Part shown: positions 27,268-43,311 of the stretch, one piece after another
Layout: each line of letters begins with the position of its first letter
Numbering within the stretch: the first letter of the stretch is position 1
Source of the DNA: Minisyncoccota bacterium
GTDB taxonomy: Bacteria > Patescibacteriota > Minisyncoccia > Minisyncoccales > Minisyncoccaceae
Reading direction: 5' to 3'
Assembly (NCBI GenBank): GCA_041649435.1
Contig: JBAZNB010000003.1
Span: forward strand, 29,041-93,040
DNA length: 64,000 bases
Made by a program: the position numbers and the translations under genes
The notes under the pieces: generated by a model
The model's input: only the letters and a program-made list of their open reading frames with translations
Database searches by the model: none
What the model was told of the DNA's origin: nothing

Positions 27268-29070
27268 TTAAGACAATCCATTAGTTTGACGAGACAAACG
27301 ATCTTTTGCTTCTTTTATTTTTAAAACTTCTTCTGGATTAGTGGTAATAATTTGGTCTTCGGTATATGAAGCTCGAATAGCAATAGCAACATGTTTTTGT
27401 CCTGCGAAAAAAATACCCTCCCCCACCGGGGTTTCTAAAAGAAGATATTTTTCTTGATCAGTTAAATTAAATGTTTTTTGGACTAAATCAATACTAGCGG
27501 GACTTTGTTTTAATAATAATTGAATTGAGGAATTTGTAATAATCGGCTTGCCATAAGCAGAACTCATAAAATCAGAAACATCTTGAGTGATTGTTGTTAC
27601 CCCTAGCCAATATTTTCGGGAACGTTTACACATTCCAAAAAGAAAAGAGGCGCCGTCTTCTTCTTTCATCATCCACCAAGCCTCATCAACAACCAAGATT
27701 CTTTTTTTGAAAGTGGTACGAACAGCATTCCAAATATAACGCATAACAATAAACATAGCGATTGGCCTTAATTCATCTTCCATGTCTCGAATCCCAAAAA
27801 CAACCAAATGTTTATCCATGTCTACATTTGAGTAAGCATTAAAAAAAGACGAATAAGTACCACGAGTGAATTTTCTTAATCTTTCTGATAAAGAATCAGC
27901 ATTTTCCATTGTTTCTAAAACCGATTCCAAGTCTGATAAAAGAGGGACGTTTTCTTTCCATTTTTTAGGGTCAGAGCTAATAGTAATGTCTTTAGCAGCA
28001 TAAGTAGCCATAATCGCTTGATCCATAATTGCGTCTTCTTCTGGAGTCATTCCACCGAGCATTATTCTCATTAATCCAACCAAGTTAATAACATTGCCCC
28101 GAAGTACGTCTTCTGGAGTTTCCCCTTCCATCATATCAGGCAAATCAAAAGGATTGATATGGCTATCAGAACTTAAAGATATTCGGAAAAAAGATCCTCC
28201 AACAGCTTCAGCTAAGGGCTTGTACTCATTTTCTGGATCAATGATAATACATTCCGTGCCCATCATCATTGATCTTAAAATTTCCAATTTTACAGCATAA
28301 GATTTTCCAGATCCAGCTTTTGCAAAAATAACCATATTTGGATTTTCCATACTAAAGCGATCAAATAAAACCAAAGAGCTATTATGTTTATTAATTCCAA
28401 AAAGAATTCCTTCATTACTACTTAAATCAAAAGAAATAAAAGGAAACAAACTTGATAAAGGAGAGGTATTAAGAGTGTTGTGGATATTTAAAAGATCTTG
28501 GCCATAAGGAAAACAAGAAATAAGACCTTCTTTTTGTTGGAAAAGCGCAGGCTTTATATAAATAAGACGAGACTCGAGCATTGATCTTAGATTTGTTTCT
28601 ACAAATTCTAATTGTTTTTTATCGTCTACATATACAGTGATATAAAGCCCAAATTTAAACATTTTTTCTTGAGCTGTTTGTAAACTGTCGCGCAAATCTT
28701 CCAGGTCTTGAAAGGCAGTTTCCAAGGCAGGATCTCTAACCAATCCTTTTTCTTGCCTTTCAATAATTTCTGATTGAACCTCGGTGACACTTTTCCTTAG
28801 TTGTTTTAAAATTTCTCCAGTTTCAATAGGGTGGAAATAAAAAGATAAATCAAAAGGGACATCCATATTAATTACCGGAGCAATCCAGCCCATATTTAGA
28901 TAACGCGGATAAGAAAAAACAAAGTATGTTTTACTATATTTTTCTTCAAGCTGAACATAATTTTGAGCAACCTCAATTGAAGACGGAGCAATAATGTCTT
29001 TAAAATCAGTTACTTCGGTTTCAAATAATTTTTTCTTTTTTTCTTCTTTTTTTGCGCCAAATAGGGCCAT
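27268..29070 (-). CDS. VirB4/TrbE-like T4SS ATPase, C-terminal 600 aa part
   Basis: Walker A AKAGSGKS with downstream NPFD; Walker B VVDEAWWM; overall VirB4 (AAA_10) arrangement. It is in-frame with the upstream 214 aa ORF. Confidence 0.7.
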   Translation of the reverse strand: MALFGAKKEEKKKKLFETEVTDFKDIIAPSSIEVAQNYVQLEEKYSKTYFVFSYPRYLNMGWIAPVINMDVPFDLSFYFHPIETGEILKQLRKSVTEVQSEIIERQEKGLVRDPALETAFQDLEDLRDSLQTAQEKMFKFGLYITVYVDDKKQLEFVETNLRSMLESRLIYIKPALFQQKEGLISCFPYGQDLLNIHNTLNTSPLSSLFPFISFDLSSNEGILFGINKHNSSLVLFDRFSMENPNMVIFAKAGSGKSYAVKLEILRSMMMGTECIIIDPENEYKPLAEAVGGSFFRISLSSDSHINPFDLPDMMEGETPEDVLRGNVINLVGLMRIMLGGMTPEEDAIMDQAIMATYAAKDITISSDPKKWKENVPLLSDLESVLETMENADSLSERLRKFTRGTYSSFFNAYSNVDMDKHLVVFGIRDMEDELRPIAMFIVMRYIWNAVRTTFKKRILVVDEAWWMMKEEDGASFLFGMCKRSRKYWLGVTTITQDVSDFMSSAYGKPIITNSSIQLLLKQSPASIDLVQKTFNLTDQEKYLLLETPVGEGIFFAGQKHVAIAIRASYTEDQIITTNPEEVLKIKEAKDRLSRQTNGLS

Positions 29071-29079
29071 AAATTTTTT

Positions 29080-29724
29080 TTAAGTAATTATTTCTGGGGG
29101 CAGTTCTGGGTAGTATCCCATTTCCGCTTGTTTTGGATGATGTAATGACCAAAGCAATTCCAATACCTCTTCTGATCCCATTGCTGCTGATTTTAACCCG
29201 CAACGTCGAAGCCCCAAAGCAACATATTCAATTCTTTGCAAGAGCTGATATTTTCCTTTTTGGAAAAAATCTTCAGTGAGAGCTGATTGAGACACTGGTT
29301 TTCCTCCCAGATTTTGAGCAGCTGAAGAAGTAGAAAGCTCTAAAAGAGGATAATAAGGGATAACCACATAAAAGCTTTTATTCATAATAGACCCATCTGC
29401 TACCAGATCTTCAATAAATTTTCGATAATCTGCAGTTTGAATTTTTAATAATTCGTTTTTTTGTTTTGACTCTAATTCTTTTATTTTATCAATATATCCA
29501 GTAATGTTTACTTTTCGCGAACTAACTATCATTTGGCAGGAAAAATCCAAAGAATTAAGAAAATTTTGAAAATTAAAAATAATCGCCCCCTGTTCTTCTT
29601 CAGACTTTAAAGCAAAATTAATAGAAGAAACAATGAGCATCCCCCTCATTGATTGGTCATTCATTATCATAATCCCCTCGCGGATTTGTTTAATTGGAAT
29701 AAATTGTTGCGTGGGAGTAGCCAT
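29080..29724 (-). CDS. VirB4/TrbE-like T4SS ATPase, N-terminal 214 aa part
   Basis: Same reading frame as 27268-29070, separated only by a TAA (plus strand tta at 29080-29082) and three codons. Content resembles the VirB4 N-domain (IMIMNDQSMRGMLIVSSINFALKSEEEQ). Confidence 0.5.
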   Translation of the reverse strand: MATPTQQFIPIKQIREGIMIMNDQSMRGMLIVSSINFALKSEEEQGAIIFNFQNFLNSLDFSCQMIVSSRKVNITGYIDKIKELESKQKNELLKIQTADYRKFIEDLVADGSIMNKSFYVVIPYYPLLELSTSSAAQNLGGKPVSQSALTEDFFQKGKYQLLQRIEYVALGLRRCGLKSAAMGSEEVLELLWSLHHPKQAEMGYYPELPPEIIT

Positions 29725-29729: not shown

Positions 29730-30152
29730 TTATTTTTCAAAATCTATTTTTTTAATTAAGTTTTCTATTTTTCCGGTTTCTTTTATTTTTAAAGGAGATG
29801 GTTTTTCTTGAAGTTTTGCTTCGGCCAATCTTTTTTCTTTTGGCGAAGAAAGAAATACAGGAGATTGTTTTCTTTTCCAAAGGAATAATTTATTATTTAA
29901 TGTGTAGGTAGTAAAATTTTTTCCCACCTTAGCTACTCCCAATCCTTCTATTTTTATAAAAGCAAGGGCAAAGGCAATTCCAAAAAGTAAAACAGTGATT
30001 ATAACATATAAAGTTAAATGGTTTTTTGACATTAAAAAATATAAAAAAAAAGAAATTCCAAAAGCTGTACCAACAAACATAGTTTGGCTTAGAGTAAGCG
30101 GCCCTAATATTTTCGGGTCATGTTCGATAAATTGTGGCACTCGAAAATCCAT
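29730..30152 (-). CDS. VirB3-like small membrane protein
   Basis: 140 aa; DPKILGPLTLSQTMFVGTAFGISFFLYFL matches the VirB3 DP-lf-G-tRP motif followed by TM helices. Lies immediately upstream of virB4-like, the canonical order. Confidence 0.5.
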   Translation of the reverse strand: MDFRVPQFIEHDPKILGPLTLSQTMFVGTAFGISFFLYFLMSKNHLTLYVIITVLLFGIAFALAFIKIEGLGVAKVGKNFTTYTLNNKLFLWKRKQSPVFLSSPKEKRLAEAKLQEKPSPLKIKETGKIENLIKKIDFEK

Positions 30153-30201: not shown

Positions 30202-31086
30202 TTAAAGCGGAGCTTCGCGATAAGGATCAGAATAATCATTTTTAATATTGAAAGTATTCTTTGATTCAGATATTGGAGTTGGTTTAGGGATGTTTGGCTC
30301 AGAGTCTGGTTTTTTAAAAGACGAATCAGAACTTGAAAAATCTGAAGAACTTTCTTTATCAATTTTTTCTCGATAAGAAGACTGGTTATTTAAAATATTT
30401 TTATTTTTAATTTCCGTGTTTAGAGTCGGCTCTGTTAATTCTGTAAAATCAATACTAGAAGTGCTAGGCTTTTTCACTTCTTCTAAATTTTTATCGCTAA
30501 GGTCAATCCGAGACTCTTCTTTTTTGGTAAAGCTTTTAACTGAAACAGAAGTTTTTGGTTTTTTTTCTTTAATTAAAGACAAAAAAGATTTTAAAGATTT
30601 TATGATGGGAAATTTGATTTTTCCGCTCCCTCCTTGGAGCTGAACATCTTCTTCTTTGTTATTCAGGCTTTGAGCTTCTGATTCTAAAAGAGAAGATTTT
30701 TTATCTTCAGGGATTTCTTCGGGAATAAATTTATCTAAATCAGGAATTGTTTTTTTGCCTGTTTTTTGTTCTTCTAGTCGTGATAAGGCCAAGCGCAAAT
30801 GTTTGAAAATGCTGAAATTTATTTCTTGGGTTATTTTATTGGCTAAAAATTCATTAATATTTAATTCTAATTCCAAAGTAACTCCAAAATCTTTGAGAGA
30901 CAAAAGACCCATTAAAACTCGACCAGTATATTTAGCAACAATAGAAGTCTGATCTTCGTCCAATCCTAAACGGCTACAAATATTATAAATAATTTGGTTG
31001 TTTTTTTCATCAAAAACAGCTTCTTTTAATTCTTCGGGCAGGGTTTTATAGGTTTCCCAAAAAAATTCTTTAGTGTACTCTTCCAT
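30202..31086 (-). CDS. hypothetical protein (ordered N-domain + low-complexity Ser/Lys/Glu-rich tail)
   Basis: 294 aa with no TM helix and no recognisable motif. Co-directional with the virB3/virB4-like genes. Confidence 0.35.
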   Translation of the reverse strand: MEEYTKEFFWETYKTLPEELKEAVFDEKNNQIIYNICSRLGLDEDQTSIVAKYTGRVLMGLLSLKDFGVTLELELNINEFLANKITQEINFSIFKHLRLALSRLEEQKTGKKTIPDLDKFIPEEIPEDKKSSLLESEAQSLNNKEEDVQLQGGSGKIKFPIIKSLKSFLSLIKEKKPKTSVSVKSFTKKEESRIDLSDKNLEEVKKPSTSSIDFTELTEPTLNTEIKNKNILNNQSSYREKIDKESSSDFSSSDSSFKKPDSEPNIPKPTPISESKNTFNIKNDYSDPYREAPL

Positions 31087-31196: not shown

Positions 31197-31225
31197 TTGA
31201 CAAATATAATCAAGTAGTTTATAAT
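31197..31225 (+). promoter_or_regulatory. consensus sigma70-type promoter (TTGACA-17-TATAAT) for the SPFH gene
   Basis: ttgaca at 31197-31202, 17-nt spacer, tataat at 31220-31225, about 45 nt upstream of the ATG at 31274. Confidence 0.55.
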
Positions 31226-31273: not shown

Positions 31274-32725
31274 GTGATGAAAATGGTTTTCTGGAAAAAA
31301 GAAAAAAAAGAAGAAGTAAAACGAACAGCTGAAGAACAACTACAAAGCTATCAGCAAAAAAGAAAACAAGCCCGCAATAAGGGATTGGTAATTATGATTT
31401 TTGCTGTAATTTTTGGAATTGCTTTAATCGCAATGTCTACTTCTAATGTTTTTTCTCTCATTGGAGCAACAGCCGCAGCGATTTTGATTGTAGTATTTTT
31501 TGTTTTTTTAGTGCTTTATTTTATCTGGGCAAAACACGACATCTTAACTTGCAATGTCAATGAAGGATATTGCAAAGTTATTGTAGTGGGAGATAAGTTC
31601 AAAAGAATTGTTTTTAACCACAAAGGCAAAGCAATGAATAAAGATTGGGAAATCGTGGAAGAAAATAGTCCTAATGCATATTACAAAGATAAAAGTACTT
31701 TAGGTATGCATACAATTTGGCCTTTATTTTTCGGCAAGGTTTATACCCACATCTTAGCCTGGCGGAAATATGATTTTTTGAAAAAAGCTCCAATTGACAG
31801 GAGAGAGTTGTTAACTCAAACAAGCTTGATGGATTATCCATATTATATCGAAACCCTTCAGGCTGAAGACAAAGACCGGGCTCCGCTTGATCTATTTACA
31901 GTAGTAACAATGCGGATAGTTAATCCGTATAAAGCTTTGTTTAAAATTACTACTGAGTGGATTGAGGTTGCTACTCCAAAAATACAGGGCACTTATGTGG
32001 CTTACATCAAACTGCACTCCTTTCAGGAAATGCTGGAAAATGTGAAGTCGCTTGGCGACAGCATTTTTGAAGAAATGAAACAGTCGGGGGGTATTTTTGA
32101 AGAGCTTCGCGATATTTATGGAGTGGAAATAATCTCTATAGACGTAATAGAGATTATTGGTGGCGACAAAGACATGCAAGCAGCGATTAAAGCAAATGCT
32201 GTCGCCAAGCTTCGAAAAGATGCCACTATAACTGATGCCGAAGCAGCGGCCAAGAAAAAAGTAATAGATTCTGAGGCCGAGATGCAAGCTCGAGCTAATA
32301 AAACAGCGGGTCTCTTTATGACTTTAATTTCAGGAAGAACTGGTCTTTCTGAAGATAAAATAAAAGAGTGCATGACAGAGCACCCCCAAGAATTCCAAAA
32401 AACATATGGACCGGAAATTGAAGCTTGTAACAAGCTGGTTGAACAAATGGTGTCAGCTGAAGCTAATGGTCTGGTTCAAATTTTGACTAGTGGAAGTACT
32501 GGTTCATCAGGCGGAGGAGTGAACAATGACCTTATTGCTACGGTTGTTGGGATGCTCAAGGCAATGAACACTCCGGCTGTTTCTGGTAACTCTCTAAATA
32601 AAAGCGGAGGGAAATCACAAGCACAATCAGAACCAACAAAACAAAACCCTTCAGAAGAAAAGAAACTTACGAAGGAAGAAAAAAGGAAAAAATTTTTAAA
32701 AGATAATGGACTTGAAGAATACTAA
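31274..32725 (+). CDS. SPFH/band-7 (stomatin/flotillin-like) membrane protein
   Basis: N-terminal TM helices followed by an SPFH-like core (...YGVEIISIDVIEIIGGDKDMQAAIKANAVAKLRKDATITDAEAAAKKKVIDSEAEMQA) and a Gly/Ser-rich tail. Confidence 0.6.
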   Translation: MMKMVFWKKEKKEEVKRTAEEQLQSYQQKRKQARNKGLVIMIFAVIFGIALIAMSTSNVFSLIGATAAAILIVVFFVFLVLYFIWAKHDILTCNVNEGYCKVIVVGDKFKRIVFNHKGKAMNKDWEIVEENSPNAYYKDKSTLGMHTIWPLFFGKVYTHILAWRKYDFLKKAPIDRRELLTQTSLMDYPYYIETLQAEDKDRAPLDLFTVVTMRIVNPYKALFKITTEWIEVATPKIQGTYVAYIKLHSFQEMLENVKSLGDSIFEEMKQSGGIFEELRDIYGVEIISIDVIEIIGGDKDMQAAIKANAVAKLRKDATITDAEAAAKKKVIDSEAEMQARANKTAGLFMTLISGRTGLSEDKIKECMTEHPQEFQKTYGPEIEACNKLVEQMVSAEANGLVQILTSGSTGSSGGGVNNDLIATVVGMLKAMNTPAVSGNSLNKSGGKSQAQSEPTKQNPSEEKKLTKEEKRKKFLKDNGLEEY

Positions 32726-32737
32726 GTCCATTTTTTA

Positions 32738-33130
32738 TTACACTAATTCTTGCCCAATCCCTTTAGGCGTTATTTTCATTTTAGGGGTTGTATCTAATGC
32801 ATCAGTCTCGTCGTCTATAGATAATTCTTTTAGAACGTAATCATTTTTAATTAATTTAGCGGATATCTCTTCTGCTGCTTCTCTAGTAAGATTTAAATTT
32901 TTAATAAGATTATTTACAACCTCAGCCGTTGATATTTTTTTATATTTCAAATCTAGGATTATTTTATATAAAATTAAAGACGCCAAGTTTTTTTGAGAAG
33001 ACATTTTGAAAAATAGCCTCTCTCTCGCTGTTTTAAAAGACGATAAATTATTACGAATATTTTCGTCTATATCTTCAAGTCGGTATTGGCTAACTAAGTC
33101 TTCTATTAAGTTGTATATTTCATCTAGCAT
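32738..33130 (-). CDS. hypothetical protein
   Basis: 130 aa with no recognisable domain; downstream of and co-oriented with the virB6-like gene. Confidence 0.35.
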   Translation of the reverse strand: MLDEIYNLIEDLVSQYRLEDIDENIRNNLSSFKTARERLFFKMSSQKNLASLILYKIILDLKYKKISTAEVVNNLIKNLNLTREAAEEISAKLIKNDYVLKELSIDDETDALDTTPKMKITPKGIGQELV

Positions 33131-33141: not shown

Positions 33142-35058
33142 TTATGGATTAGATTGTATATATAAAATATTATCTATAAAGTTGTCTATTTGACGTTGGA
33201 ATTCATCTCTCTCTTGTTGCGTCGTCGCAGCTCGCATTTGGGTTAACAAATGATTATAGTGAGCATTAATATTTGCTTGGTTCTGTTGTCCCCCGAGTCT
33301 TCTTAAGTTGTTGACTTGAGCTGGAGACCCATCTTCAATCGTTCTCCTAATTTGTCTTTCATTTGCATGAGTTAAGACATCCAAAGAATTAAGAGACTCT
33401 GCTCGAACTGTTTCTTGGAATTTTCTAGCCGACATCCCTTGGATTGTCTGTTGGGTTGTTTGTCCATTAATCCTTAAGGATAACTCTGGAGCATATTCTG
33501 CAATTTTATTTAGGTCGGCGCCTCTTCTTCTTAATTCAACGTGATTTGCGGCAATCCAATTAATTTCAGCATCTGTTATGGCGGCATCTTCTCCTCTGTC
33601 CACAGCAGAAATAATTCCAGCTATTTTTTCTTGCCTACTTTCAACAGAGATCGCATTTTGTTGAGTAATTCTTTGCAATTCGGCCGCTTCTATATTTTTA
33701 TAAGACGAAACTAAATTATTAATTTCTTTTTGTTCCTCTTGAGTTGCGCTTCCAGCTGGAGCCACACCAAGAGGTTCTTTTACATTTCTTGTATACCAGC
33801 GGTTAATTTGGCTTTCGGCTGATTTTCCTTGAGTAAGGCCACCTTTTAGGCCTCCTCTTAATGCTCCCCCAGCGCCACCTACAGCAGAGGAAAAAGCTGA
33901 AGAAACTCGTCCCCCTCCTTCAGCTCGGCTTTGAGTCCATTGATTTGATATTCCCGACCCAGCTCCAACAGCAGCACCGATAGCCGCTCCCCCAATTACC
34001 CCCTTAGTAGTTCCAATTGCTTTATTGGCCAAACCTTTTATTTTCCCGCCTACTGGACCGCCTGAATCAAGAGTAATAAAAAATCCAAGAATTAAGACAA
34101 TAAAAGGAATAAGATAAGCAAAAAGCAAACCCAATGTTCCATTTAAAACATTTCCTGTCGGAGGATTAATAATTTGACTGGAATCTGTGGCAATTTGAAA
34201 CATTATTAGATTTGATAAAAAAATAGTTCCAGCGGCCGGGATTCCCAAAAAACACCATTGAAGAAAATCATCCCACCAACCATCCCAAGTGCAAATTCTG
34301 GGAAAAATTTTTAAAAAATATTTTGATTCTGGTAAAACCTTGGTGGCAAAAGCAACAGGAGATAAAATCACTAAAATCCAAAGCATAACAATTCTTACCA
34401 AAAGCAGTAAAGCAAAAAGCAAATAAATTACACTGGCAAAAATAGCAAAAATCGTGAGAACAAATAAAGTTGGAATATCGGCCGAATTAAAAGTTGTCAT
34501 TTTTTCAGACAAAAGATTGACAAAAGTAGGAGGAACCCCACCCTTCAAAAGAAGATCCATTATCATTGTCGCAAGGTCAATAATTAATCCGCAGAATACT
34601 GGAGTAAAATTTATTAGAGCTGCAATTAAAATAAAATTAACTAAAGTTTTTTTTGCTCGAGTTTCTTGGTAGCCAAGGATTATACTAAGCGCGATTATAA
34701 CTAATCCAAAAATAAGGACAACGTTGGCCAAATTTCTTACAAAACCCCAGCCAGTGGAAACAATCACATTGTCTGCTCCAGTAAAAGAAACAGCTAAAAA
34801 ATTTCCACTTGCTACCCAAGTTAATAAATCAAGGGATACATTTAAAATATAAAGCGGAACAGTCATTAATAACCCAAAAATAGCGCCCAATAAAGCTTCG
34901 CCTAAAGAATCTTTTACGTTACTTAAAAAATTAAATGGATTTAAATCTGATAATTCAAAAGCAGAGGCAAAAAAAGGGAAAAATAAAAAAGAAATAAAAA
35001 CAAAGCAAAAAAACGCAATTATTGTTTTATGAGAAAATATTTTTTTGAAAAATTTCAT
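33142..35058 (-). CDS. VirB6/TrbL-like polytopic membrane protein with Gly-rich linker and C-terminal soluble domain
   Basis: 638 aa; signal peptide, at least 6 TM helices, Gly-rich stretch (GGPVGGKIKGL...GGAGGALRGGLKGGL), then a ~250 aa hydrophilic domain. This is the TrbL/VirB6 architecture. Confidence 0.5.
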   Translation of the reverse strand: MKFFKKIFSHKTIIAFFCFVFISFLFFPFFASAFELSDLNPFNFLSNVKDSLGEALLGAIFGLLMTVPLYILNVSLDLLTWVASGNFLAVSFTGADNVIVSTGWGFVRNLANVVLIFGLVIIALSIILGYQETRAKKTLVNFILIAALINFTPVFCGLIIDLATMIMDLLLKGGVPPTFVNLLSEKMTTFNSADIPTLFVLTIFAIFASVIYLLFALLLLVRIVMLWILVILSPVAFATKVLPESKYFLKIFPRICTWDGWWDDFLQWCFLGIPAAGTIFLSNLIMFQIATDSSQIINPPTGNVLNGTLGLLFAYLIPFIVLILGFFITLDSGGPVGGKIKGLANKAIGTTKGVIGGAAIGAAVGAGSGISNQWTQSRAEGGGRVSSAFSSAVGGAGGALRGGLKGGLTQGKSAESQINRWYTRNVKEPLGVAPAGSATQEEQKEINNLVSSYKNIEAAELQRITQQNAISVESRQEKIAGIISAVDRGEDAAITDAEINWIAANHVELRRRGADLNKIAEYAPELSLRINGQTTQQTIQGMSARKFQETVRAESLNSLDVLTHANERQIRRTIEDGSPAQVNNLRRLGGQQNQANINAHYNHLLTQMRAATTQQERDEFQRQIDNFIDNILYIQSNP

Positions 35059-35464
35059 ATTTACTTGTGCATTAGTGAATGTTATAATTATTATAACATT
35101 AATTGAATTTTTGGTAAATTACAAAATTATGAAGGCCAATTTAAGAGCAAGCCCTGAAACTATTATGATCCTTCCTTTGGCAATAATGGGAGATTTGATC
35201 GGAATCATCCTGCTTTTATTTGGGCTAGACGATTGCGGAATAACAGACTTAGTAATAACACCAATTTTAACAATTTGGATTATGATAAAAAGAAAAGATC
35301 CAACAATAATGAAAAAAGTTTTATTCCGTTTACTTGGTTATGGCACAATAGAGCTTATCCCCTATTTGGGAGGAATTTTCCCAGGGTATAGCTTAATCGT
35401 GATTCAAACTATTTTGCAGACTCAAAAAGCGGAAAAAGATTCAGAAGAAATTATTTTAGAATAA
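35045..35464 (+). CDS. small hydrophobic membrane protein (uncertain; true start may be ATG ~35129)
   Basis: 139 aa ORF with 3-4 predicted TM helices. Overlaps the virB6-like start region on the opposite strand. Confidence 0.3.
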   Translation: MKNFIFTCALVNVIIIITLIEFLVNYKIMKANLRASPETIMILPLAIMGDLIGIILLLFGLDDCGITDLVITPILTIWIMIKRKDPTIMKKVLFRLLGYGTIELIPYLGGIFPGYSLIVIQTILQTQKAEKDSEEIILE

Positions 35465-35482: not shown

Positions 35483-38400
35483 GTGAAGAAAAAAATGAAA
35501 AAAAATAAAAAAATTGGATTAATTATTTTAGGATTATTTTTTTTAATTCCGTTAACTGTTTTTGGCGCCCTAGAAAATACCTATCCTTCTCTTCCAGGAT
35601 TTTCTCCAGAAGAAGGAACAGGGCTGTTGGTTTATTTTTTTAATTTTTTGGTTTATTCCGGAGGAATAGTGGCTGTCTCAGTAATTATTTATCAAGGAAT
35701 AACCATTTTTTTATCCAAAGGAAATGTAGCAAAAATAAATGAAGCTAAAGATAGAATTAAGGCGGTATTTTTAGGGTTAACAATTCTTTTAGGCGCTTAT
35801 TTTATTTTAATGTTTATTAATCCTGATTTAACAAAAATTAATCTTCCAATCTTAGAATACGGCGAAAAAATTTTTTCGAATAATAAAGAATTCGAATCAA
35901 AAGATGTTGTTTATAAAGAAATTGCCTTGGGAGCAATTATCGAAGCAATTTTGATGCCGTCTTCGACAGCTGAAAATCAATATTTTAATTATTCCCAACT
36001 TAACAAAAAAACAGAAGAAAAATGTTATTTATATGACGAAGAAGGAAACACAATTGATCGCAATAATGATGGCGAAATTAACAACCAAGATATGGTTGAG
36101 GGAATGGACTTGTCTGTTTGTATGGATAATTTACTAAGAGCAACAATTGCAAAAATTAGCTGGTTTAACGGCAATCAATCAATTTGTAATGGTGCGATTG
36201 CTAATACAGAAGGCCCGATTAATGCTTTGAAAAAATTTATTAGGACAGGATGTACTTGTGAGCCTTGCACTAAATGGCCAGATAAAACATTCCCAGAAAC
36301 AAACTGGCCGCAAGGGTGTAAAACAACAGATACAAAAGTTACTTGCTATGACAATGACGGATCAAGCTATGAAATAGATGGAACTTATTGTGACTGGAAG
36401 TGTAAGTGCTGTGGAGAGCCTCGGGGAAGTGATATTGGCTGCCAAGATCAACCTTCTAGTCCATTTTATTTGGAAAATGTTTATATCAACCACGATCCTT
36501 GTACAAATCGTCAACAGATTGATTGTGCTCGGCAAGAAATGAATTTTAGAATTTACGGCAAAGGATTGGATTTGGGATTAAAATGCGCTGGGATTTATGA
36601 ATACAGTCCAGACATTGCCCCTTTTATCGATGAAGAAACTAATACTTTAAAAATAATTGAAAAAACAGCACCAGATGGAAAAATATATAAAGCTCAATTC
36701 TTAACTTTTACCGGCGCAGTTGAAAGCAGTGTTCTCAATAGAATCGAAAGCTTTAAGTCGTATTTCAATAATCGGTTAGCAGAACTACAAATTGCTAAAA
36801 ATTTTATTAATGCCGATAAAACAAAAAATATTTTATCTTTAGCTGAATTTCAAAATCTCCAAGAAACTAGTTCTGAAAATGTGGTTAAAGAACCTTTGAT
36901 TACCGGCTACGATCCCTCAACTTACCATTCTTTTGTTTGTAAAAAATATAATATTAATAATGTTTGCGTTCAAGGAGAGTTGGTAAAATTAAAAGAATCA
37001 GGATACGCTTTTTTGCCTGGACAAAATTATGAATCTTTTCCTACTCAAGGAGAGGGCCAAGTGCCAGCAACTTCCCCAAGCTCGGAAATTGACAATACTA
37101 AATATACAAGCGATAAATATGCTTTTGGCTGGCCATTTACAGCAAAAAGAATTTGGAATAATAAATTAGGAAAAACAGCTCTAAAAAGCGATTTATATAA
37201 TACTGGAGACCCTGATACCTTATATATTTTATCTTATCCAGGAACAACTGATCCAAACAAATATCCAGCTTCTGCTCGGGCCGGAATTATTGATAATTCC
37301 CCTACCAATAATCAATGCACCTTAAAAGATTCGGAAAAAACAGATAAAGAACAAATTGAAAAAGGAACAGCAGTTTCTAATATTCCGATTGGACAATTAA
37401 CTGACAACATGACTGAATATGTAGAACAAATAAATTTAATTTTAGACAACACAGTTGATGAAGTAAATAATGTGATTGATTCTGCTGATCAGCTAGCTAA
37501 TTATTTACCAGAACATTGCAGCTGTTCTTCTGGCTGTGGAAATACCAATATTTGCGAACCTCAACTTGGACCAACCTGCGCCGAGCCATTTCAAGTTTGC
37601 GGAGCGCCTCCTTGCACGGATTGCGAAACATCGGAACAAGTTGTTTGTGAATTTGGATGTCTTGATTGCGGAGCAACTCAAGCAATAGATTCAGCAAGAT
37701 ATTATTGCGTAAGAGATGGATCTCCTACGGGAGAATGGTCAGCTGCTAGAAATTATGATTTTGATGCTGCCGGGGTATTAAATCCATTTAATTATATGCC
37801 TTCGCAAGAAGGATGTTATGTTTCTAATCCGGCGAATAATTATACATCATTTTATTTATTAAAAAATCCTTTTCTTATAATTGGTGGAGAGCATTGCGGA
37901 TGCGAACAAGGATTATCATATCTAATAAGAGATGCTCTTGATGGTGCTCATGAATGCAATACTTTGGTTTATGGCAGTTCACTAGAAGGTTCTTTTGGAG
38001 CAGTTTGCACCACAAATGATGTTCAAAAAATATTAAATAATTATGAATATCGGTATGACAAGCAATTATTAGAATCAGGATATATTTGTACTTGTGCTCA
38101 TAATATTGGTTCAACCCAATGCTATAATCCAATAAATAATGAACCATTAAATTGCACACTAAATCAATTAAACGATGAAGAGTTTACAACAGATAGCGAT
38201 TGTTATCAATTATTAGAAAAATCAATTGCTGGTGATTGTATAAAAAATGCCAAAACAGTCACAAATTTAGGCGGCTTTTGGGATATTGCTTCTTGTAATG
38301 GAAAAACTATTAGAATAACCCCAAAATATACTTCTAATATTATCTCTTGCGAAGAGGGTTATACAAACTTAACCGAAGAAGAAAGAATTTTAATCGAAGA

Positions 38401-39250
38401 TAATTATAGTCAAGAAATTACTTGGCTTAATGAGCTTGGCAAAGGACAAGACGAATTGACTTATAGCGGTTTAGATTGTTGTGGTCTTTATGTAGGGAAT
38501 ACTAATGAACTTCAAGCAAATATTGATAATTTAATGTCTAATATTCCGAGCGGATTTAATACCGAATGTTCGATTGATTTTGAAACAGGACAATCATCAA
38601 TTAAAATTAGTCGAAAAGTTGATTTGAGCGGACCAATTATTCGGCCAGAAAAAATAAAAGATAATCAAGCTTATTATGTTTGTCCATATAATGAAATCAA
38701 AACCCAGCAATCCAGAATTTATAAAAGAGTGGGAGATCCTTCTTGGGTTGGATTAGAAGATTTAACCACAGATCAAGCATGCTTGGATGATGTTCCTGGA
38801 TTTTTACAAAGGATAGAGCAATGGCGAGAAAGATTGTGGAATTATCAAAATGCAATAGATTTATCCCCTATTGATGTTAATCGATTTACTTTATTAGATT
38901 TATTAAATGTTACTCGTTCACGTTTTCATCAGTGTATTCAGGGATATGGCCAGCAATATAAGCCGGCTGCGACCACGGTTTACTTATTTACTTGCGAAGA
39001 AGGAATTGATGCTCAAAACTTAGGGGCTTATCGTATCTATCCAGAATTTCCATTAACCAATTCATTTTTATCAGAAACAAAATCAGAATCTCAATGGGGA
39101 TGCTATCCTTTGAATAGTTCAGTTCTCAACGCTCAAGAAAGAAAAAATTGTTTTGAAAATAAAAATAAAAAAGGAGTTGACGGATGTCAATCAATTTTAC
39201 AAGAATATAATTTAATAAATGATTTTTATTGCTGTTCTGGATCTCAATAA
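35483..39250 (+). CDS. giant secreted Cys-rich protein with N-terminal VirB2/TrbC-like pilin module (paralog 1 of 4)
   Basis: 1255 aa; signal peptide ...VFGALENTYP, then two hydrophobic helices joined by loop SKGNVAKINEAKDRIKA. The remainder is hydrophilic with many Cys clusters (CTCEPC, CKCCGEP, CSCSSGCGNTNICEP, CTDCETSEQVVCEFGCLDCG). Confidence 0.6.
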   Translation: MKKKMKKNKKIGLIILGLFFLIPLTVFGALENTYPSLPGFSPEEGTGLLVYFFNFLVYSGGIVAVSVIIYQGITIFLSKGNVAKINEAKDRIKAVFLGLTILLGAYFILMFINPDLTKINLPILEYGEKIFSNNKEFESKDVVYKEIALGAIIEAILMPSSTAENQYFNYSQLNKKTEEKCYLYDEEGNTIDRNNDGEINNQDMVEGMDLSVCMDNLLRATIAKISWFNGNQSICNGAIANTEGPINALKKFIRTGCTCEPCTKWPDKTFPETNWPQGCKTTDTKVTCYDNDGSSYEIDGTYCDWKCKCCGEPRGSDIGCQDQPSSPFYLENVYINHDPCTNRQQIDCARQEMNFRIYGKGLDLGLKCAGIYEYSPDIAPFIDEETNTLKIIEKTAPDGKIYKAQFLTFTGAVESSVLNRIESFKSYFNNRLAELQIAKNFINADKTKNILSLAEFQNLQETSSENVVKEPLITGYDPSTYHSFVCKKYNINNVCVQGELVKLKESGYAFLPGQNYESFPTQGEGQVPATSPSSEIDNTKYTSDKYAFGWPFTAKRIWNNKLGKTALKSDLYNTGDPDTLYILSYPGTTDPNKYPASARAGIIDNSPTNNQCTLKDSEKTDKEQIEKGTAVSNIPIGQLTDNMTEYVEQINLILDNTVDEVNNVIDSADQLANYLPEHCSCSSGCGNTNICEPQLGPTCAEPFQVCGAPPCTDCETSEQVVCEFGCLDCGATQAIDSARYYCVRDGSPTGEWSAARNYDFDAAGVLNPFNYMPSQEGCYVSNPANNYTSFYLLKNPFLIIGGEHCGCEQGLSYLIRDALDGAHECNTLVYGSSLEGSFGAVCTTNDVQKILNNYEYRYDKQLLESGYICTCAHNIGSTQCYNPINNEPLNCTLNQLNDEEFTTDSDCYQLLEKSIAGDCIKNAKTVTNLGGFWDIASCNGKTIRITPKYTSNIISCEEGYTNLTEEERILIEDNYSQEITWLNELGKGQDELTYSGLDCCGLYVGNTNELQANIDNLMSNIPSGFNTECSIDFETGQSSIKISRKVDLSGPIIRPEKIKDNQAYYVCPYNEIKTQQSRIYKRVGDPSWVGLEDLTTDQACLDDVPGFLQRIEQWRERLWNYQNAIDLSPIDVNRFTLLDLLNVTRSRFHQCIQGYGQQYKPAATTVYLFTCEEGIDAQNLGAYRIYPEFPLTNSFLSETKSESQWGCYPLNSSVLNAQERKNCFENKNKKGVDGCQSILQEYNLINDFYCCSGSQ

Positions 39251-39257: not shown

Positions 39258-40604
39258 ATGAAAAAAACAATTATCAAAACAATATTATTAGTTTGTCTTT
39301 TTTGGCCAAAATCAGTTTTGGGAGCTTTGGAAAATATTTATCCCCCTATTCCGATTTCTTTGAATAAAACCTTAACAATTACTGCCAGCAGCAATGCGAC
39401 AGAATATCTTTTATATTTATTTGCTTTTTTTTCTGGCCTGGGCACAATTATTGCTTTAGGAGCCATGATTTGGGCTGGGGTAGAAATGATTCTTTCACAT
39501 GGCAATCCTCAAAAGTTTTCTGAGGCTAAATCCAAGGCTCAAAACGCTTTGATTGGACTATTAATTTTATTTGGAGCTTATCTTATTTTAAATGTTGTGA
39601 ATTCAGAAATAAAAAATGTAAAAGTAGAACAAATTGATTGCAATCAGGAGGATATTTGTGTTGCTCGTTATTTTTTGGGAAGTGAAAATCAAAAAATAAG
39701 CTATTCTTCGTCTCTTCCTGATAGTCCTAATTTAGATTTAAAATCAAATGAGGTAATGGTAATTAAAAGATTTAAAGGATTAAAAGAGATTTGGGGATTT
39801 CCTGAGCTTGATTTTCAAGGAACTCCGTTTTTAATTCAAGGATATCGAAACGACGATGAATCAGATTTGAATAATGATTTGCCAGCAGAAATAACCATTG
39901 ATAGTTCTGTTAAATCCGTTAGAGCCTATATTAAACAACCAGGAATATATTTATATGATGGATTAAATTATCAAGCTAGCAAGATCCCTCCCCTATTTTT
40001 AAGAAATAGCACTGTTGATTTGGGAGAATTTAAAAATAAAATAAAATCAATTCAAATTTTTAATGAACCAAATTTTAAATATTATGCTGTGGTTTTTGCC
40101 ATAGAAAAATATAATGATAGTTATGATTATAATTTTTATCCCCAATCTCCCAGCTCAGATTGCAGCGATGTGATTGAAGAAAGCGATTCGTCTTTTTCTG
40201 GGCCGAGCGGATCCATTTTAATTTTTAAGAGCTCGGATTCTTTTTTAGCAAAAAATCATAATCCAGGCATAACTTTTTATAATACTTTAAATTGCTATAT
40301 CCCACTGGGCTCGGTATCTGGTCAATTAAGCGAGTGTTCGGCCCCGTTTCAAGGATTATTTAAACTACAAACAATTCCAATTTCAAATTGCTCTGGAATA
40401 TCTGCTGGAGATGTTTTGTCTGTTAGACTCTCAGAAGAATCGGGAGTTTTGATGATTGCAGAATCATCTGGAAAAAGATATTGTAATTTTTTTGACATTG
40501 ATAGTGTAAATATTGTTAGTGGTAATTGTATCAGCGATAATATATTCTTTCGAAAAGCAGAAATTAATAATTTTATAATTATCCCTTATGAAAAAAAATT
40601 ATAA
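39258..40604 (+). CDS. secreted pilin-module fusion protein (paralog 2)
   Basis: 448 aa; ...SVLGALENIYP signal end, helix-loop-helix AGVEMILSHGNPQKFSEAKSKAQNALIGLLILFGAYLIL. C-terminal domain shares LKEIWGF / GIYLYD / FYNTLNC motifs with paralogs 3 and 4. Confidence 0.6.
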   Translation: MKKTIIKTILLVCLFWPKSVLGALENIYPPIPISLNKTLTITASSNATEYLLYLFAFFSGLGTIIALGAMIWAGVEMILSHGNPQKFSEAKSKAQNALIGLLILFGAYLILNVVNSEIKNVKVEQIDCNQEDICVARYFLGSENQKISYSSSLPDSPNLDLKSNEVMVIKRFKGLKEIWGFPELDFQGTPFLIQGYRNDDESDLNNDLPAEITIDSSVKSVRAYIKQPGIYLYDGLNYQASKIPPLFLRNSTVDLGEFKNKIKSIQIFNEPNFKYYAVVFAIEKYNDSYDYNFYPQSPSSDCSDVIEESDSSFSGPSGSILIFKSSDSFLAKNHNPGITFYNTLNCYIPLGSVSGQLSECSAPFQGLFKLQTIPISNCSGISAGDVLSVRLSEESGVLMIAESSGKRYCNFFDIDSVNIVSGNCISDNIFFRKAEINNFIIIPYEKKL

Positions 40605-40616
40605 TAAAAATATAAT

Positions 40617-41996
40617 ATGAAAAAATTATCAATAATTATTTTTACAGTACTTTTGTTTACGGGTTTTTTAATTCAACCCTGTTTTGCTTTAGAGATTCAA
40701 TATCCGGAAATAACCACCATAGATGGCCAAAAAATAACAATTACGGATGAATCTTCTCCAGACCAGTACGTAATTTATGTATTTTATATTTTAATAAGCC
40801 TGGGGGCAGTGATTGCTTTTATTGTTTTAGTAATGGCTGGATTTAATTTTTTAAACAGCGGAGGGTTGCCGACAAAAATAAGCTCTGCAAGAAATCAAGC
40901 TCTAGGCGCTTTTGTTGGACTTGTTGTTTTGTTCTCTTGCCATTTAATTCTAAATACAATTAATAAATCTTTAGTTAATACTCCTGTTAAAGCAATAGAC
41001 TGCAAAGATGTTCCAATTTGCGTAGCGTTTACTAGGATAGCAAACGAAAAATCGAAAACAACAGTGGAAATGGCTATTCAGACAGCTAATGATAATTTAT
41101 TGTTACAAGAAGGAGAAAGTATTGTTATTAAAAAGTATGATAATTTAAAAGAAATTTGGGGGTTTCTTGATTCAGGATTTAGAGGCACGCCAATTAAAAT
41201 TTTTCCTGATCCCAATAATCCAGAGGCAGAGGCAAAAGACTTGGCTCTTAGTCCTACAGCTGATGGCACAAATTTAAAATCTTATAAAATAATCGAAAAA
41301 AGAGAAGGAATTTATCTGTATGATAGACCCAATTTTGAAGTTGGTGATGGATCTATTGCCCCGTTTTTTTTAGCTGGCAATGTAAGCGATTTTTCTAAAA
41401 CCAATCCTGATTTTTTTCGTAAAACCCAATCAATTCAAGTAGTTGCTCCACGGTTTACTCCTGCCGATCCTGAAAATCAAGTTGGTCATTTGGGAACTAC
41501 ACCAGGAGCAGTATTTTTTTCTGAACCAGAATTTAGAGGAACATGTTTGGAGTTTTTTCCAACTGCGGGAACAGAAACTGGATTGAATGATTTAAATCAA
41601 GAAGGGCAATTAGGAAAACCATTAATCCCTTTTGGTTATAATGTAAGCTCGGCAATTACTTTTAAATATACTACAACTGGGAGTGCGGCAGTTAATGGGG
41701 TTGTTACTTTTTATAATACACTGAATTGTCAAAAAAATGAGGCTATTCCTGAACAAAAATCTTGTGAGCAAGAAATTTATGAAAATCCGTGGGGAATATA
41801 TTTAAACTCAGCTTGTGGGCAAGATTTTAAAATAAAATCATTTAAAATTAATGGTCCAGTAGGAGTGGTTTTAGTTGAAGGAAATAAATGCCAATATTTT
41901 GATAAAAAAGATTTTTGTTCAGGTAATTGTGTTTGTTCAATTTTAGAAACCAGTGTTAGTAATCCTGACATTTTCGAACTCTTGCCAATAGATTAA
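40617..41996 (+). CDS. secreted pilin-module fusion protein (paralog 3)
   Basis: 459 aa; CFALEIQYP, loop NSGGLPTKISSARNQA; motifs LKEIWGF, GIYLYD, FYNTLNC. Confidence 0.6.
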   Translation: MKKLSIIIFTVLLFTGFLIQPCFALEIQYPEITTIDGQKITITDESSPDQYVIYVFYILISLGAVIAFIVLVMAGFNFLNSGGLPTKISSARNQALGAFVGLVVLFSCHLILNTINKSLVNTPVKAIDCKDVPICVAFTRIANEKSKTTVEMAIQTANDNLLLQEGESIVIKKYDNLKEIWGFLDSGFRGTPIKIFPDPNNPEAEAKDLALSPTADGTNLKSYKIIEKREGIYLYDRPNFEVGDGSIAPFFLAGNVSDFSKTNPDFFRKTQSIQVVAPRFTPADPENQVGHLGTTPGAVFFSEPEFRGTCLEFFPTAGTETGLNDLNQEGQLGKPLIPFGYNVSSAITFKYTTTGSAAVNGVVTFYNTLNCQKNEAIPEQKSCEQEIYENPWGIYLNSACGQDFKIKSFKINGPVGVVLVEGNKCQYFDKKDFCSGNCVCSILETSVSNPDIFELLPID

Positions 41997-42000
41997 TTTT

Positions 42001-43311
42001 ATGAAAAAAAACATTTTATTATTTTTATTTATTTCAATTCTTTTTTGCGCTAATAGCGTTTTAGCTTTGGAAATTTCCTATCCCACAATCGGTGGAGTAT
42101 CTTTGCCTCCTAATCCTACGTTTACAAATTATTTTATTTATTTTTTTAATTTTGCTTTATTCGTTGGAATGGTGGCGGCTAGTTTTGTTTTGATTTTTGG
42201 AGCAATATCATATTTTCTTTCTAAAGGAGAAATTGGGAAAATAGAAAAAGCAAAAAGAGAAATCATAAGGTCTTTTATCGGGCTTGTTGTTTTATTTGGA
42301 TCAGTAATGATATTAAATACGATTAATTCTGGAATTAATAAAAATACTTTAGAAAGTTTGAACCCTGAAAAATATTCTGGAGGAATAATTTTACAATATG
42401 AAAACGGCCGAGAACAAAACATTGCTGGCGACATGACCGAAACGCCTTATAATGTAGGCGGAATTAAATGGCTTTCCGCAGAATCGGAATTACCGAGAAT
42501 ATTTGTTTTTCCGCAAAAAGATTTTTCTGGCAACCCCCAAGAAATTATGAACGGAAACAGTGTTTTTATTGCTAAAGGAAGTTCAATTTCTTTTGATTGG
42601 CAACGTCCCGGAGTTTATCTTTATAATGCGCTTGATTATCAGTTAGAAAACAGAAGGTCGCCATTATATTTATTAAATAGCCAGCCAGCCTTAGGAAATA
42701 ATGGATTTGATAAAAAAACCGCTTCGATAAAAATAGTTCAGCCTTCGGAAAAAGGATTTGTAAAATACGGAGCCGTGCTTTTTTCCGGGGATAATTATAC
42801 TGGAAAATGTTCTTGGGTAATGAATGATTTGCCAAATATTAATGAAGTTAGTCAGAGCAATCCTGAAGAAAATAGTGTTCGAATTAACGAAAGCGATGAG
42901 TTTTCTGGCATTGGCCAAGTATCTTCAATTTATGTTTTAAAAATTGATCCCGCCACTCCCCTTTCCGAGGTCGTGCTTTATAATGGTACAAATTGCGAAT
43001 CAAAAGATTCTATTTGGAATGATGCCACCAAATCATTTCTTGAGCCGAATTATTGCGTTGTTCCAGAATATCAAAAAGAATTTAAATTTGAAATTTGCGA
43101 AACAATGCCTCAAAACGGAGATACTATTTTATCAGCGAAAATAAGCGAAGGTGCTGTTTTATTATTAAAAGACAAAGAAGGAAATTGCCAACTATTCAGG
43201 AAGCAAGGACTAAGCAATTGTATTACTTCTATTACTTATGGGAAGGTTTATGATATAGAAAATAGAGAAAAGACAAAACCTTTATATTTTACGATTTTAC
43301 CGGGTAAATAA
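42001..43311 (+). CDS. secreted pilin-module fusion protein (paralog 4)
   Basis: 436 aa; SVLALEISYP, loop SKGEIGKIEKAKREI; motifs GVYLYN, LYNGTNC. Confidence 0.6.
   Translation: MKKNILLFLFISILFCANSVLALEISYPTIGGVSLPPNPTFTNYFIYFFNFALFVGMVAASFVLIFGAISYFLSKGEIGKIEKAKREIIRSFIGLVVLFGSVMILNTINSGINKNTLESLNPEKYSGGIILQYENGREQNIAGDMTETPYNVGGIKWLSAESELPRIFVFPQKDFSGNPQEIMNGNSVFIAKGSSISFDWQRPGVYLYNALDYQLENRRSPLYLLNSQPALGNNGFDKKTASIKIVQPSEKGFVKYGAVLFSGDNYTGKCSWVMNDLPNINEVSQSNPEENSVRINESDEFSGIGQVSSIYVLKIDPATPLSEVVLYNGTNCESKDSIWNDATKSFLEPNYCVVPEYQKEFKFEICETMPQNGDTILSAKISEGAVLLLKDKEGNCQLFRKQGLSNCITSITYGKVYDIENREKTKPLYFTILPGK

Follow-up and report, generated by a model that had tools for sequence, protein, structure and literature searches.

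A non-conjugative type IV secretion/pilus cluster near the origin of a Paceibacteria bacterium, with an array of pilin-module proteins that carry large C-terminal domains

The Patescibacteria's type IV secretion system (T4SS) is already in the literature: it was reported in Saccharibacteria in 2020 (PMC7427843), in Southlakia epibionticum, where it is essential, in 2023 (PMC10633639), across the Patescibacteria in 2025 by Quinonero-Coronel et al. (PMC12102498), and in a recent review (PMC12857230). As published, it comprises VirB4, TrsD, PrgI, VirB6, and arrays of VirB2 proteins, has no relaxase, and lies by dnaA, rnpA, and ksgA (PMC12102498; PMC10633639; PMC12857230). In S. epibionticum, the same system, including its pilin array and again without a relaxase, is needed for epibiotic growth, and a pilus-like structure has been proposed (PMC10633639; PMC12102498; PMC12857230). 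(This need is known solely in S. epibionticum, from transposon sequencing; PMC10633639.) Here we report on a stretch of 64,000 nucleotides from contig JBAZNB010000003.1, which we call the window. Positions 27268 to 43311 of the window are a chromosomal, origin-proximal, non-conjugative T4SS/pilus cluster of a Paceibacteria bacterium (Patescibacteria, or the candidate phyla radiation).

Besides the VirB4 ATPase, the locus has genes for a TrsD-like protein that is separate from it, for PrgI (VirB3), for VirB6-like and SPFH proteins, and for four products in which a signal peptide is followed by a VirB2-type two-helix module; we call these four fusions 1 to 4. As a whole, it is an ordinary member of the published system. 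The genes dnaN-dnaA-rpmH-rnpA-yidC-jag abut virB4, and ksgA abuts the pilin array on the other side. This origin-proximal dnaA/rnpA/ksgA context is the one published for Paceibacteria T4SSs (PMC12102498). We compared the locus with those of four related genomes (L002, L003, L005, and L008), and more widely with 51 species-representative loci. The gene order is kept in all four genomes and across the surveyed species. Conservation is very strong for the cytoplasmic motor, which is intact, while the envelope-exposed parts (VirB6, the fusions, and SPFH) evolve fast and are just 22-51% identical to their counterparts in L002 and L003. The window is AT-rich, with a GC content of about 0.29-0.40 (in 2-kb windows).

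The features of the locus, with the main evidence for each, are:

27268 to 29070, minus strand: VirB4-family ATPase of 600 amino acids, the motor of the system (conju_CD1110, P-loop_TraG, AAA_10, and PDB 4ag5)
29080 to 29724, minus strand: TrsD/TraC-like protein of 214 amino acids, in a gene of its own (matches to the N-terminal parts of VirB4 models)
29730 to 30152, minus strand: PrgI family protein of 140 amino acids, in which residues 24-74 or so form a hydrophobic hairpin (Pfam PrgI, 2.5e-7)
30202 to 31086, minus strand: conserved hypothetical protein of 294 amino acids, first gene of the virB4 operon (homologues only)
31274 to 32725, plus strand: SPFH/stomatin-like membrane protein of 483 amino acids, or 480 in the public gene call, which starts at 31283 (Band_7)
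32738 to 33130, minus strand: hypothetical soluble protein of 130 amino acids, 3' of the VirB6-like gene (homologue in L003)
33142 to 35058, minus strand: putative extended VirB6/TrbL-like polytopic membrane protein of 638 amino acids (mainly the predicted fold)
35060 to 35118, both strands: divergent promoter-like region that separates the pilin operon from the VirB6-like gene (sigma-70-like sites)
35129 to 35464, plus strand (longest open reading frame from 35045): small polytopic membrane protein of 111 amino acids that opens the pilin operon (hydrophobic segments)
35483 to 39250, plus strand: fusion 1, of 1255 amino acids, with a signal peptide, a VirB2-type module at about residues 1-122, and an ectodomain of about 1135 amino acids (T4SS_pilin, 0.0033)
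39258 to 40604, plus strand: fusion 2, of 448 amino acids, with a signal peptide, helices at 47-79 and 84-119, and a predicted all-beta ectodomain (T4SS_pilin, 2e-8)
40617 to 41996, plus strand: fusion 3, of 459 amino acids, a paralogue of fusion 2 over both the module and the ectodomain (BLASTP; T4SS_pilin, 4.8e-5)
42001 to 43311, plus strand: fusion 4, of 436 amino acids, a paralogue of fusions 2 and 3 (BLASTP; T4SS_pilin, 2.4e-5)

An earlier account of this DNA, made from the letters alone (the sequence-only reading), had proposed a stripped-down apparatus of VirB3, VirB4, VirB6, and pilins without conjugation genes, in a bacterium of the episymbiont type. Profile, fold, and synteny checks all came out in its favor, and every gene that it listed is present where it had placed it. 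So the reading was correct, but it is not a discovery. It also overlooked the gene for the 111-residue membrane protein (35129-35464). And while the genes of its two divergent groups are real, the SPFH gene lies between two minus-strand operons and not beside the pilin genes.

The closest described relatives are the S. epibionticum system and those of the Patescibacteria clade around it. In S. epibionticum ML1 (SEML1_0006-0019), VirB4 is also about 600 amino acids long and is adjacent to SEML1_0009, a TrsD homologue according to PMC12102498. PrgI and a VirB6-like protein are common to our locus, the S. epibionticum cluster, and its clade, and so are T4SS_pilin (PF18895) genes in tandem and the lack of a relaxase or type IV coupling protein (T4CP) in the cluster. 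The chromosomal position by dnaA/rnpA/ksgA is shared with the clade (in the Paceibacteria), and an extra pilin gene by rpsO is shared with S. epibionticum. However, the array pilins of S. epibionticum are 126-185 amino acids long (those for which lengths are available), whereas the proteins here have 436-1255 amino acids and large ectodomains. S. epibionticum also has an NTF2/VirB8-like protein (SEML1_0012), and none was recognized here; its VirB6-like protein has about 1085 amino acids, against 638 here; and its SPFH gene (SEML1_0609) is far from the T4SS, while ours is embedded in the locus.

The machine also resembles the mating-pair formation class FATA (MPF-FATA), which includes TrsC/TrsD/TrsE of pGO1, CD1110 of CTn2, and PrgI/PrgJ/PrgH of pCF10, and it resembles the integrative and conjugative element (ICE) of Mycoplasma. 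The best VirB4 models are CD1110 and Mbov_0397, and the family matched by the pilin modules is that of the pilin-like Mbov_0395 from the Mycoplasma ICE. As in MPF-FATA systems, there is a separate gene for a TrsD-type N-domain (as in pGO1), a PrgI-type VirB3, and no outer-membrane core. Unlike them, our locus lacks a PrgB-type adhesin as well as a relaxase, a coupling protein, and a VirB8-like protein, it is not on a mobile element, and it has VirB2-type pilin genes. We think it reasonably probable that the locus encodes a monoderm-type, MPF-FATA-related machine whose conjugation functions have been lost. Gram-positive conjugation systems generally lack VirB2-type pilin genes (PMC12102498). 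Contrary to the usual statement, VirB2-like modules may not be foreign to monoderm MPF-FATA-type systems. Compared with the T4SSs of Gram-negative bacteria, there is no VirB5 tip, no VirB7/9/10 core, and no VirB11 here.

The motor is well supported. The VirB4 protein scores 374 bits against NCBIfam conju_CD1110 (cut-off 325; model positions 181-734 of 752), and it also matches Pfam P-loop_TraG (1.9e-27) and AAA_10 and the VirB4-like structure 4ag5 in PDB (2.2e-41). Its nucleotide-binding motifs are intact (the P-loop, AKAGSGKS, lies around residue 250, and the Walker B motif, ILVVDE, at residue 458). The 214-residue protein beside it matches VirB4 models just in their N-terminal parts (Mbov_0397 positions 104-233, 5e-11; CD1110 positions 1-117, 7.4e-6), as well as NCBIfam TrsD (6.7e-4) and, in the precomputed Pfam annotation, the TraC-like family PF26593. 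It had no significant match among PDB sequences. Judging from these partial matches, it appears to be the equivalent of the N-terminal domain of a full-length VirB4.

The open reading frames for these two proteins are in frame with each other, with one TAA between them, in an A-rich run (29071-29079; ACT TAA AAA AAA TTT ATG). The sequence-only reading had described this as a split VirB4. The two in-frame reading frames are real, but they are a conserved TrsD and VirB4 gene pair and not a broken gene: a separate TrsD-like reading frame lies beside that of VirB4 in 45 of the 51 related loci. Across those 45, VirB4 has about 590-690 amino acids where complete, and the TrsD-like protein has about 200-270 (one is a fragment of 99 amino acids at a contig end). 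Relatives from Gracilibacteria, Peribacteria, and Tissierellaceae have single, longer VirB4 reading frames (689-789 amino acids). The two reading frames are in frame in L002 as well but out of frame in L003, so obligatory readthrough is unlikely. On the conservation of the two-gene state, we rejected reading the in-frame TAA as the mark of a pseudogene or of readthrough. Both proteins are also highly conserved: their identity to L002 and L003 is 86-87% for VirB4 and 75-80% for TrsD, versus 50-76% for rnpA, yidC, jag, and ksgA in the flanks (25645-27227 and 43289-44152). Among the Patescibacteria, TrsD is the most abundant T4SS component, and it adjoins VirB4 in 1,664 cases (PMC12102498).

In L003, a gene for 130 amino acids (17125-17517) with bAvd/23S_rRNA_IVP matches lies between the TrsD-like gene and virB4. 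Some members of this family are accessory to diversity-generating retroelements, but the L003 stretch examined showed no reverse transcriptase.

PrgI is the VirB3 equivalent of monoderm systems. The gene at 29730-30152 had been called VirB3-like, and its product does match PrgI above the curated cut-off (31.6 bits vs. 27). Its orthologues in L002 and L003 are 57-60% identical.

For the VirB6-like protein (33142-35058), the precomputed annotation has TrbL_3, which is weak on the protein itself and stronger on its homologues. This disagrees with our own Pfam scan, in which 32 members of the VirB6 family gave no match to TrbL_3 and one to TrbL (0.0064), so the VirB6 call relies mainly on the fold. 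(A family profile gave just noise when compared with PDB sequences.) In an AlphaFold2 model built with 32 homologues, the mean confidence score (pLDDT) is 72, with most of the membrane domain in the 80s. The model has a helical membrane domain (about residues 1-335), a glycine-rich disordered linker (340-437), and a confident helical C-terminal domain (440-638). In Foldseek, ranks 1 to 3 were TrwI/VirB6 proteins, and the predicted fold matches TrwI of R388, a feature in common with the VirB6 assembly platform of Gram-negative T4SSs (Agrobacterium VirB, R388 Trw). The earlier identification of this protein as VirB6/TrbL-like agrees with the predicted fold, and we accept it as VirB6-like, of the "extended" type. 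The protein is identical in sequence to one from a Candidatus Paceibacterota metagenome-assembled genome.

We then considered which genes are absent. The precomputed Pfam annotation of the called genes in the 64-kb window has no member of the relaxase, VirD4/TcpA, VirB8/9/10, or VirB11 families, which bears out the sequence-only reading for relaxase, VirD4, VirB9/B10, and VirB11. The sole T2SSE ATPase of the window (13114-14421) was considered as a VirB11 and rejected: it scores 443 bits as a GspE/PilB-type protein versus 53 bits as VirB11, and it lies by type IV pilus genes. These pilus genes (13114-17668), about 10 kb from the T4SS, include this GspE/PilB-type ATPase and a pseudopilin with N_methyl and DUF2341 domains (16271-17668, minus strand). 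So the two surface systems that S. epibionticum is known to require lie close together here, near the origin.

The array proteins are the most distinctive part of the locus. The sequence-only reading had described four tandem genes, each with a signal peptide and a VirB2/TrbC-like module, and all four N-termini do match T4SS_pilin. The curated cut-off is passed by fusion 2 only (39258-40604; 34.6 bits vs. 26.6), which also matches TrbC (0.0031) and the NCBIfam model for Mbov_0395 pilin-like proteins (8.8e-7). The other three are linked to it by BLAST (about 1e-15 to 1e-43). This includes fusion 1, whose T4SS_pilin match of 0.0033 is below the cut-off; its N-terminal module shares 34-41% identity with those of fusions 2 to 4 (E about 1e-16). 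Like VirB2/TrbC/TraA pilins, they have a signal peptide and a pair of hydrophobic helices joined by a short loop of basic character. (In all four fusions, K+R outnumber D+E in this loop.) By the positive-inside rule, the C-terminal domain should therefore be outside the cell. To our knowledge, the classical pilins of this type are all small, and none is extended at the C-terminus by a folded domain that is hundreds of residues long.

Directly after the signal peptide, all four fusions have the motif A-L-E-x-x-Y-P. Its E25, Y28, and P29 are invariant in an alignment of 12 sequences, and the motif is visible in the consensus of 76 sequences; a stand-alone short pilin elsewhere in the window (see below) does not have it. 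The motif may be a processing or assembly signal.

For fusions 2 to 4 (39258-43311), the ectodomains are predicted to be of the beta/gamma-crystallin type. An AlphaFold2 model of fusion 2 (from 12 sequences) has two long helices followed by beta structure, with a pLDDT of 69.6 overall and 80-90 over about residues 155-280. The top Foldseek matches to this model were two-domain gamma-crystallins (E = 1.9e-4), and single microbial beta/gamma-crystallin domains matched with TM scores of 0.6-0.69. By BLASTP, fusion 3 is 33% identical to fusion 2 over 376 amino acids (1e-43), and fusion 4 is 28% identical to fusion 2 over 465 amino acids (7e-25). Signatures of the form [FYW]xxxx[FY]xG are present in the crystallin-type ectodomains, such as the Greek-key signatures FLDSGFRG and FSEPEFRG of fusion 3. 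No protein in the window exceeds the threshold for Pfam Crystall; the best E value is 0.073, for residues 259-296 of fusion 4. The predicted Greek-key beta domains thus resemble those of the microbial beta/gamma-crystallins (Protein S, Flavollin, Clostrillin, Hahellin, and Nitrollin), but they differ from them in lacking an above-threshold Crystall match and a canonical Ca2+ site, and in being attached to a T4SS pilin module.

We built a profile from the three crystallin-type ectodomains and searched 1.84 billion proteins. The profile matched 194 cluster representatives. A pilin module was found in 135 of 158 proteins (the 150 profile matches listed plus earlier full-length matches). In a subset of 76, 62 proteins match T4SS_pilin, and the outliers without a pilin module include genuine Crystall proteins (best E = 1e-88), Crystall_3, and Inhibitor_I36.

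Fusion 1 is different. Its ectodomain of 1135 amino acids is cysteine-rich (the whole protein has 56 cysteines; the four fusions range from 7 to 56), it had no sequence match in PDB and no crystallin-type domain, and just the module is common to it and the other fusions. Its positional orthologues have 1301 (L003), 1215 (L002), 805 (L005), and 1025 amino acids (L008).

In L002 and L003, each of the four fusions has its own orthologue, one-to-one, and the order of the genes is unchanged. (Those of fusion 4 are 50% identical in L003 and 37% in L002.) L005 and L008 have comparable arrays of one giant protein and two to four crystallin-type fusions. The fusions are 31-50% identical between genomes whose VirB4 proteins are 86-87% identical.

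How unusual are fused pilins? The sequence-only reading had called the fusion to large domains unusual. This holds in comparison with the pilins of Saccharibacteria, and also with the best 120 matches to a profile of the pilin module, which all have 83-253 amino acids. (That search missed the window's own fusions, and its length distribution is a sample and not a census.) It does not hold for the surveyed Paceibacteria-type loci, where such fusions are common: across the 51 loci, most visible reading frames with a pilin module exceed 250 amino acids, and many have 500-1400. Fused pilins thus appear to be a common trait of the Paceibacteria type and not peculiar to this genome. In the literature, we found no published mention of fused pilins, nor of a pilin module joined to a crystallin domain. 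Nor did we find a paper on the crystallin-type and giant pilin fusions as such, on how they are kept one-to-one, or on an SPFH gene within the locus; the fusion of pilin genes to large surface domains is its one under-described feature.

The window also has a pilin gene outside of the array:

60843 to 61280, minus strand: stand-alone short VirB2-type pilin of 145 amino acids, of canonical form (precomputed T4SS_pilin; Mbov_0395 pilin-like, 5.8e-5)

This gene adjoins rpsO (about 60356-60622), 17.5 kb from the array. The protein has a cysteine-rich mature N-terminus and close homologues in P0201 (145 amino acids) and P0202 (146 amino acids), whose contigs are equal in length to those with the VirB6 homologues P0002 and P0020. 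It is the only small, module-only pilin that we found in the window; the array proteins, with 436-1255 amino acids, are not of this kind. Both this protein and fusion 2 match the Mbov_0395 model of the Mycoplasma ICE, and Mbov_0397 is matched by the VirB4 pieces. In S. epibionticum, too, a pilin gene adjoins rpsO (SEML1_0024/0025); this pilin was scored as non-essential (PMC10633639). The adjacency of pilin and rpsO suggests an old synteny that spans classes. We considered whether the short pilin could be the essential major subunit; the non-essential counterpart beside rpsO in S. epibionticum weakens this idea.

As predicted from the sequence, the plus-strand gene at 31274-32725 encodes an SPFH protein, with a Band_7 match above the curated cut-off (39.7 bits vs. 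23.6; 6.9e-10) and a match to the PH stomatin structure 3bk6 in PDB (2.5e-4). It has a hydrophobic hairpin near the N-terminus (residues 33-93). A homologue is found at the same position and on the same strand in L002, L003, L005, and L008, at 22-26% identity. Across the survey, SPFH is present in 14 of the 51 loci, and VirB4 is at least 74% identical to ours in 12 of these 14. SPFH is embedded in the locus only in the closest relatives, and PMC12102498 does not mention it.

The genes appear to form four transcription units: the 294-residue hypothetical protein, PrgI, TrsD, and VirB4; the VirB6-like protein and the 130-residue hypothetical protein; SPFH; and the 111-residue membrane protein with the four pilin-module genes. 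We propose these units from the gene orientations, and the best-placed consensus sites agree. A site that matches the sigma-70 consensus at 12 of 12 positions lies ahead of SPFH (31197-31225). The divergent region at 35060-35118 has TTTACT-17-TATAAT on the plus strand (35060-35088) and TTTACC-17-TATAAT on the minus strand (35118-35090), both with an extended -10 TG. Terminator-like hairpins lie just after virB4 (27259-27244), SPFH (32705-32732), and the last pilin gene (43370-43395). A caveat is that the total number of promoter-like sites is not clearly above that in shuffled sequences (87 vs. 74 +/- 8.5), and the same is true of the terminators, so these sites serve as positional support only.

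Three small genes of the locus had no family match in Pfam or NCBIfam. The 294-residue protein has a conserved N-terminal domain of about 115 amino acids, a low-complexity tail, and no transmembrane segment. Residues 1-115 are 72% identical in L003 and 56% in L002, and 32 of the 51 loci have a homologue. The 130-residue protein has a homologue in L003 (43% identity), and genes for 135-178 amino acids occupy the equivalent position in L002, L003, L005, and L008. The 111-residue membrane protein has orthologues at the equivalent position in the same four genomes (34-55% identity).

Beyond ksgA lies another gene that could be involved:

44296 to 45369, plus strand: LysM-LysM-Peptidase_M23 cell-wall hydrolase (Peptidase_M23, 7e-23; LysM, 2.6e-22)

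In L002, L003, L005, and L008, this hydrolase also lies by ksgA and the pilin array. VirB1-like proteins with M23 and LysM domains have been described in Patescibacteria (PMC12102498). The hydrolase is possibly a VirB1-type partner that opens the cell wall, and it is uncertain whether it belongs to the system.

Next to the hydrolase, an element about 8 kb long (at about 45998-54071) interrupts a ComM/YifB-like Mg-chelatase gene (45404-55031) and divides it in two. Compared with the intact homologue of 502 amino acids in L008, the N-terminal part (54072-55031) corresponds to residues 1-310 and the C-terminal part (45404-45997) to residues 307-502. The insert has a GC content of 0.38-0.40, versus about 0.31 around it. 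A large serine recombinase is encoded at the junction (45999-47717), and the insert also carries helix-turn-helix proteins, DUF5659, and two N6_N4 DNA methyltransferases. There was no clear attachment-site (att) repeat at the insert; the longest shared word has 9 bases.

What does this system do? On balance, we favor, with moderate confidence, a machine plus an adhesin-bearing pilin array that serves for host attachment, and possibly for exchange of material with the host, but not for DNA conjugation. Most likely, the core machine assembles or exposes the fusions as host-contact structures, perhaps as adhesin-bearing pili like those that the sequence-only reading had suggested. The pilin-module proteins would be exported by Sec/YidC, and the signal peptide would be cut before A-L-E-x-x-Y-P. 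The two-helix hairpins would then sit in the membrane, the loop with its K/R residues on the inner side and the large C-terminal domain on the outer side. A VirB4 hexamer, docked via PrgI/VirB3 and the separate TrsD N-domain protein, would extract the hairpins on the VirB6 platform. The hairpins would form a short pilus or a stalk-like structure, with three crystallin-type ectodomains and one cysteine-rich ectodomain of 1135 amino acids facing the host. SPFH may scaffold the membrane site (as suggested by its position and by general knowledge of SPFH proteins), and the neighboring LysM-M23 hydrolase may open the peptidoglycan.

Several points weigh against this proposal. None of our results shows polymerization, and we know of no VirB2-family pilin with a domain of 300-1100 amino acids that assembles. 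As a matter of rough geometry, judging from F- and T-pili, a filament made wholly of subunits with 35-kDa decorations would be crowded. No VirB5-like tip protein or VirB8-like protein was recognized in the window, and the VirB6-like protein had no significant sequence-profile match in our own scans (Pfam and NCBIfam). The canonical crystallin Ca2+ motif (N/D-N/D-x-x-S/T-S) is absent from the ectodomains. The fold assignments come from medium-confidence models (pLDDT of 70-72) with shallow alignments of 12 and 32 sequences, and the roles proposed for SPFH and the M23 peptidase are based on position alone. Finally, we examined 64 kb of the genome, and a coupling protein or relaxase may lie elsewhere.

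The machine could instead be a channel for effectors, nutrients, or DNA uptake, with the fusions left unpolymerized as hairpin-anchored static adhesins, substrates, or gatekeepers. The ectodomains are very large for pilus subunits, and the canonical short pilin is encoded separately (60843-61280). That four distinct paralogues are kept one-to-one would fit distinct adhesin specificities, and reviews weigh effector delivery or the uptake of host molecules (PMC11665869; PMC12857230). However, the hairpin belongs specifically to the T4SS_pilin/TrbC type, and across species it strictly accompanies VirB6/VirB4 at the same locus. Also, a plain anchor would need neither the conserved A-L-E-x-x-Y-P N-terminus nor the module. 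In S. epibionticum, the array pilins are essential while the rpsO-linked pilin is not. We regard unpolymerized fusions beside a channel as rather unlikely. In a bolder form of the adhesin-array proposal, which we think less likely than not, the VirB2-type hairpin has become a general assembly handle in Paceibacteria, and several non-redundant "adhesin-pilins" (three crystallin-type and one giant and cysteine-rich) are co-polymerized by VirB4/TrsD/PrgI/VirB6 into a heteromeric host-contact organelle that is organized by SPFH. If this is true, then each pilus subunit would have a folded ectodomain of 35-125 kDa, which would be unprecedented for T4SS pili.

We also considered working DNA transfer, by conjugation or by ComB-like uptake, with a relaxase or coupling protein outside of the window. 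VirB4 is of a clade that derives from monoderm conjugation systems (PMC12102498) and matches the CD1110, Mbov_0397, and TraC models; VirD4 homologues of Patescibacteria are usually encoded far from virB4 (PMC12102498); the ComM-like gene is a conserved neighbor; and a review suggests DNA uptake (PMC11665869). But besides the lack of a relaxase or T4CP in 64 kb, relaxases were detected in only 103 Patescibacteria genomes, compared to 2,474 virB4 genes (PMC12102498). The locus is fixed at the origin by housekeeping genes in many species and is not on a mobile element, and the ComM-like gene is disrupted here by an insertion while the T4SS is intact. In S. epibionticum, comEC is dispensable and the T4CP is non-essential (PMC12102498; PMC12857230). 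We consider DNA transfer to be improbable. As for a decaying ICE whose virB4 was broken by a nonsense mutation, the single in-frame TAA between the VirB4-like reading frames and the missing conjugation genes are what one would expect to see. Yet most of the surveyed loci share the two-gene state, L003 even has a gene between the two, both genes are more conserved than their housekeeping neighbors, the Walker motifs are intact, and TrsD is a frequent neighbor of VirB4 in published genomes (PMC12102498). We give this idea almost no credence.

The T4SS of Patescibacteria is essential in the one genetically tractable species and is non-conjugative, and reviewers speculate that it is a pilus or a conduit (PMC11665869; PMC12857230). 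Our analysis indicates that the "pilins" of this Paceibacteria array are not bare subunits but have large, fast-evolving, disulfide-rich surface domains. These ectodomains are kept one-to-one in two related genomes, and this points to host recognition or adhesion as one of the array's jobs. The large pilin-fused surface domains probably contact the host cell, and the fusions provide defined targets and testable leads on the function of the T4SS in Patescibacteria.

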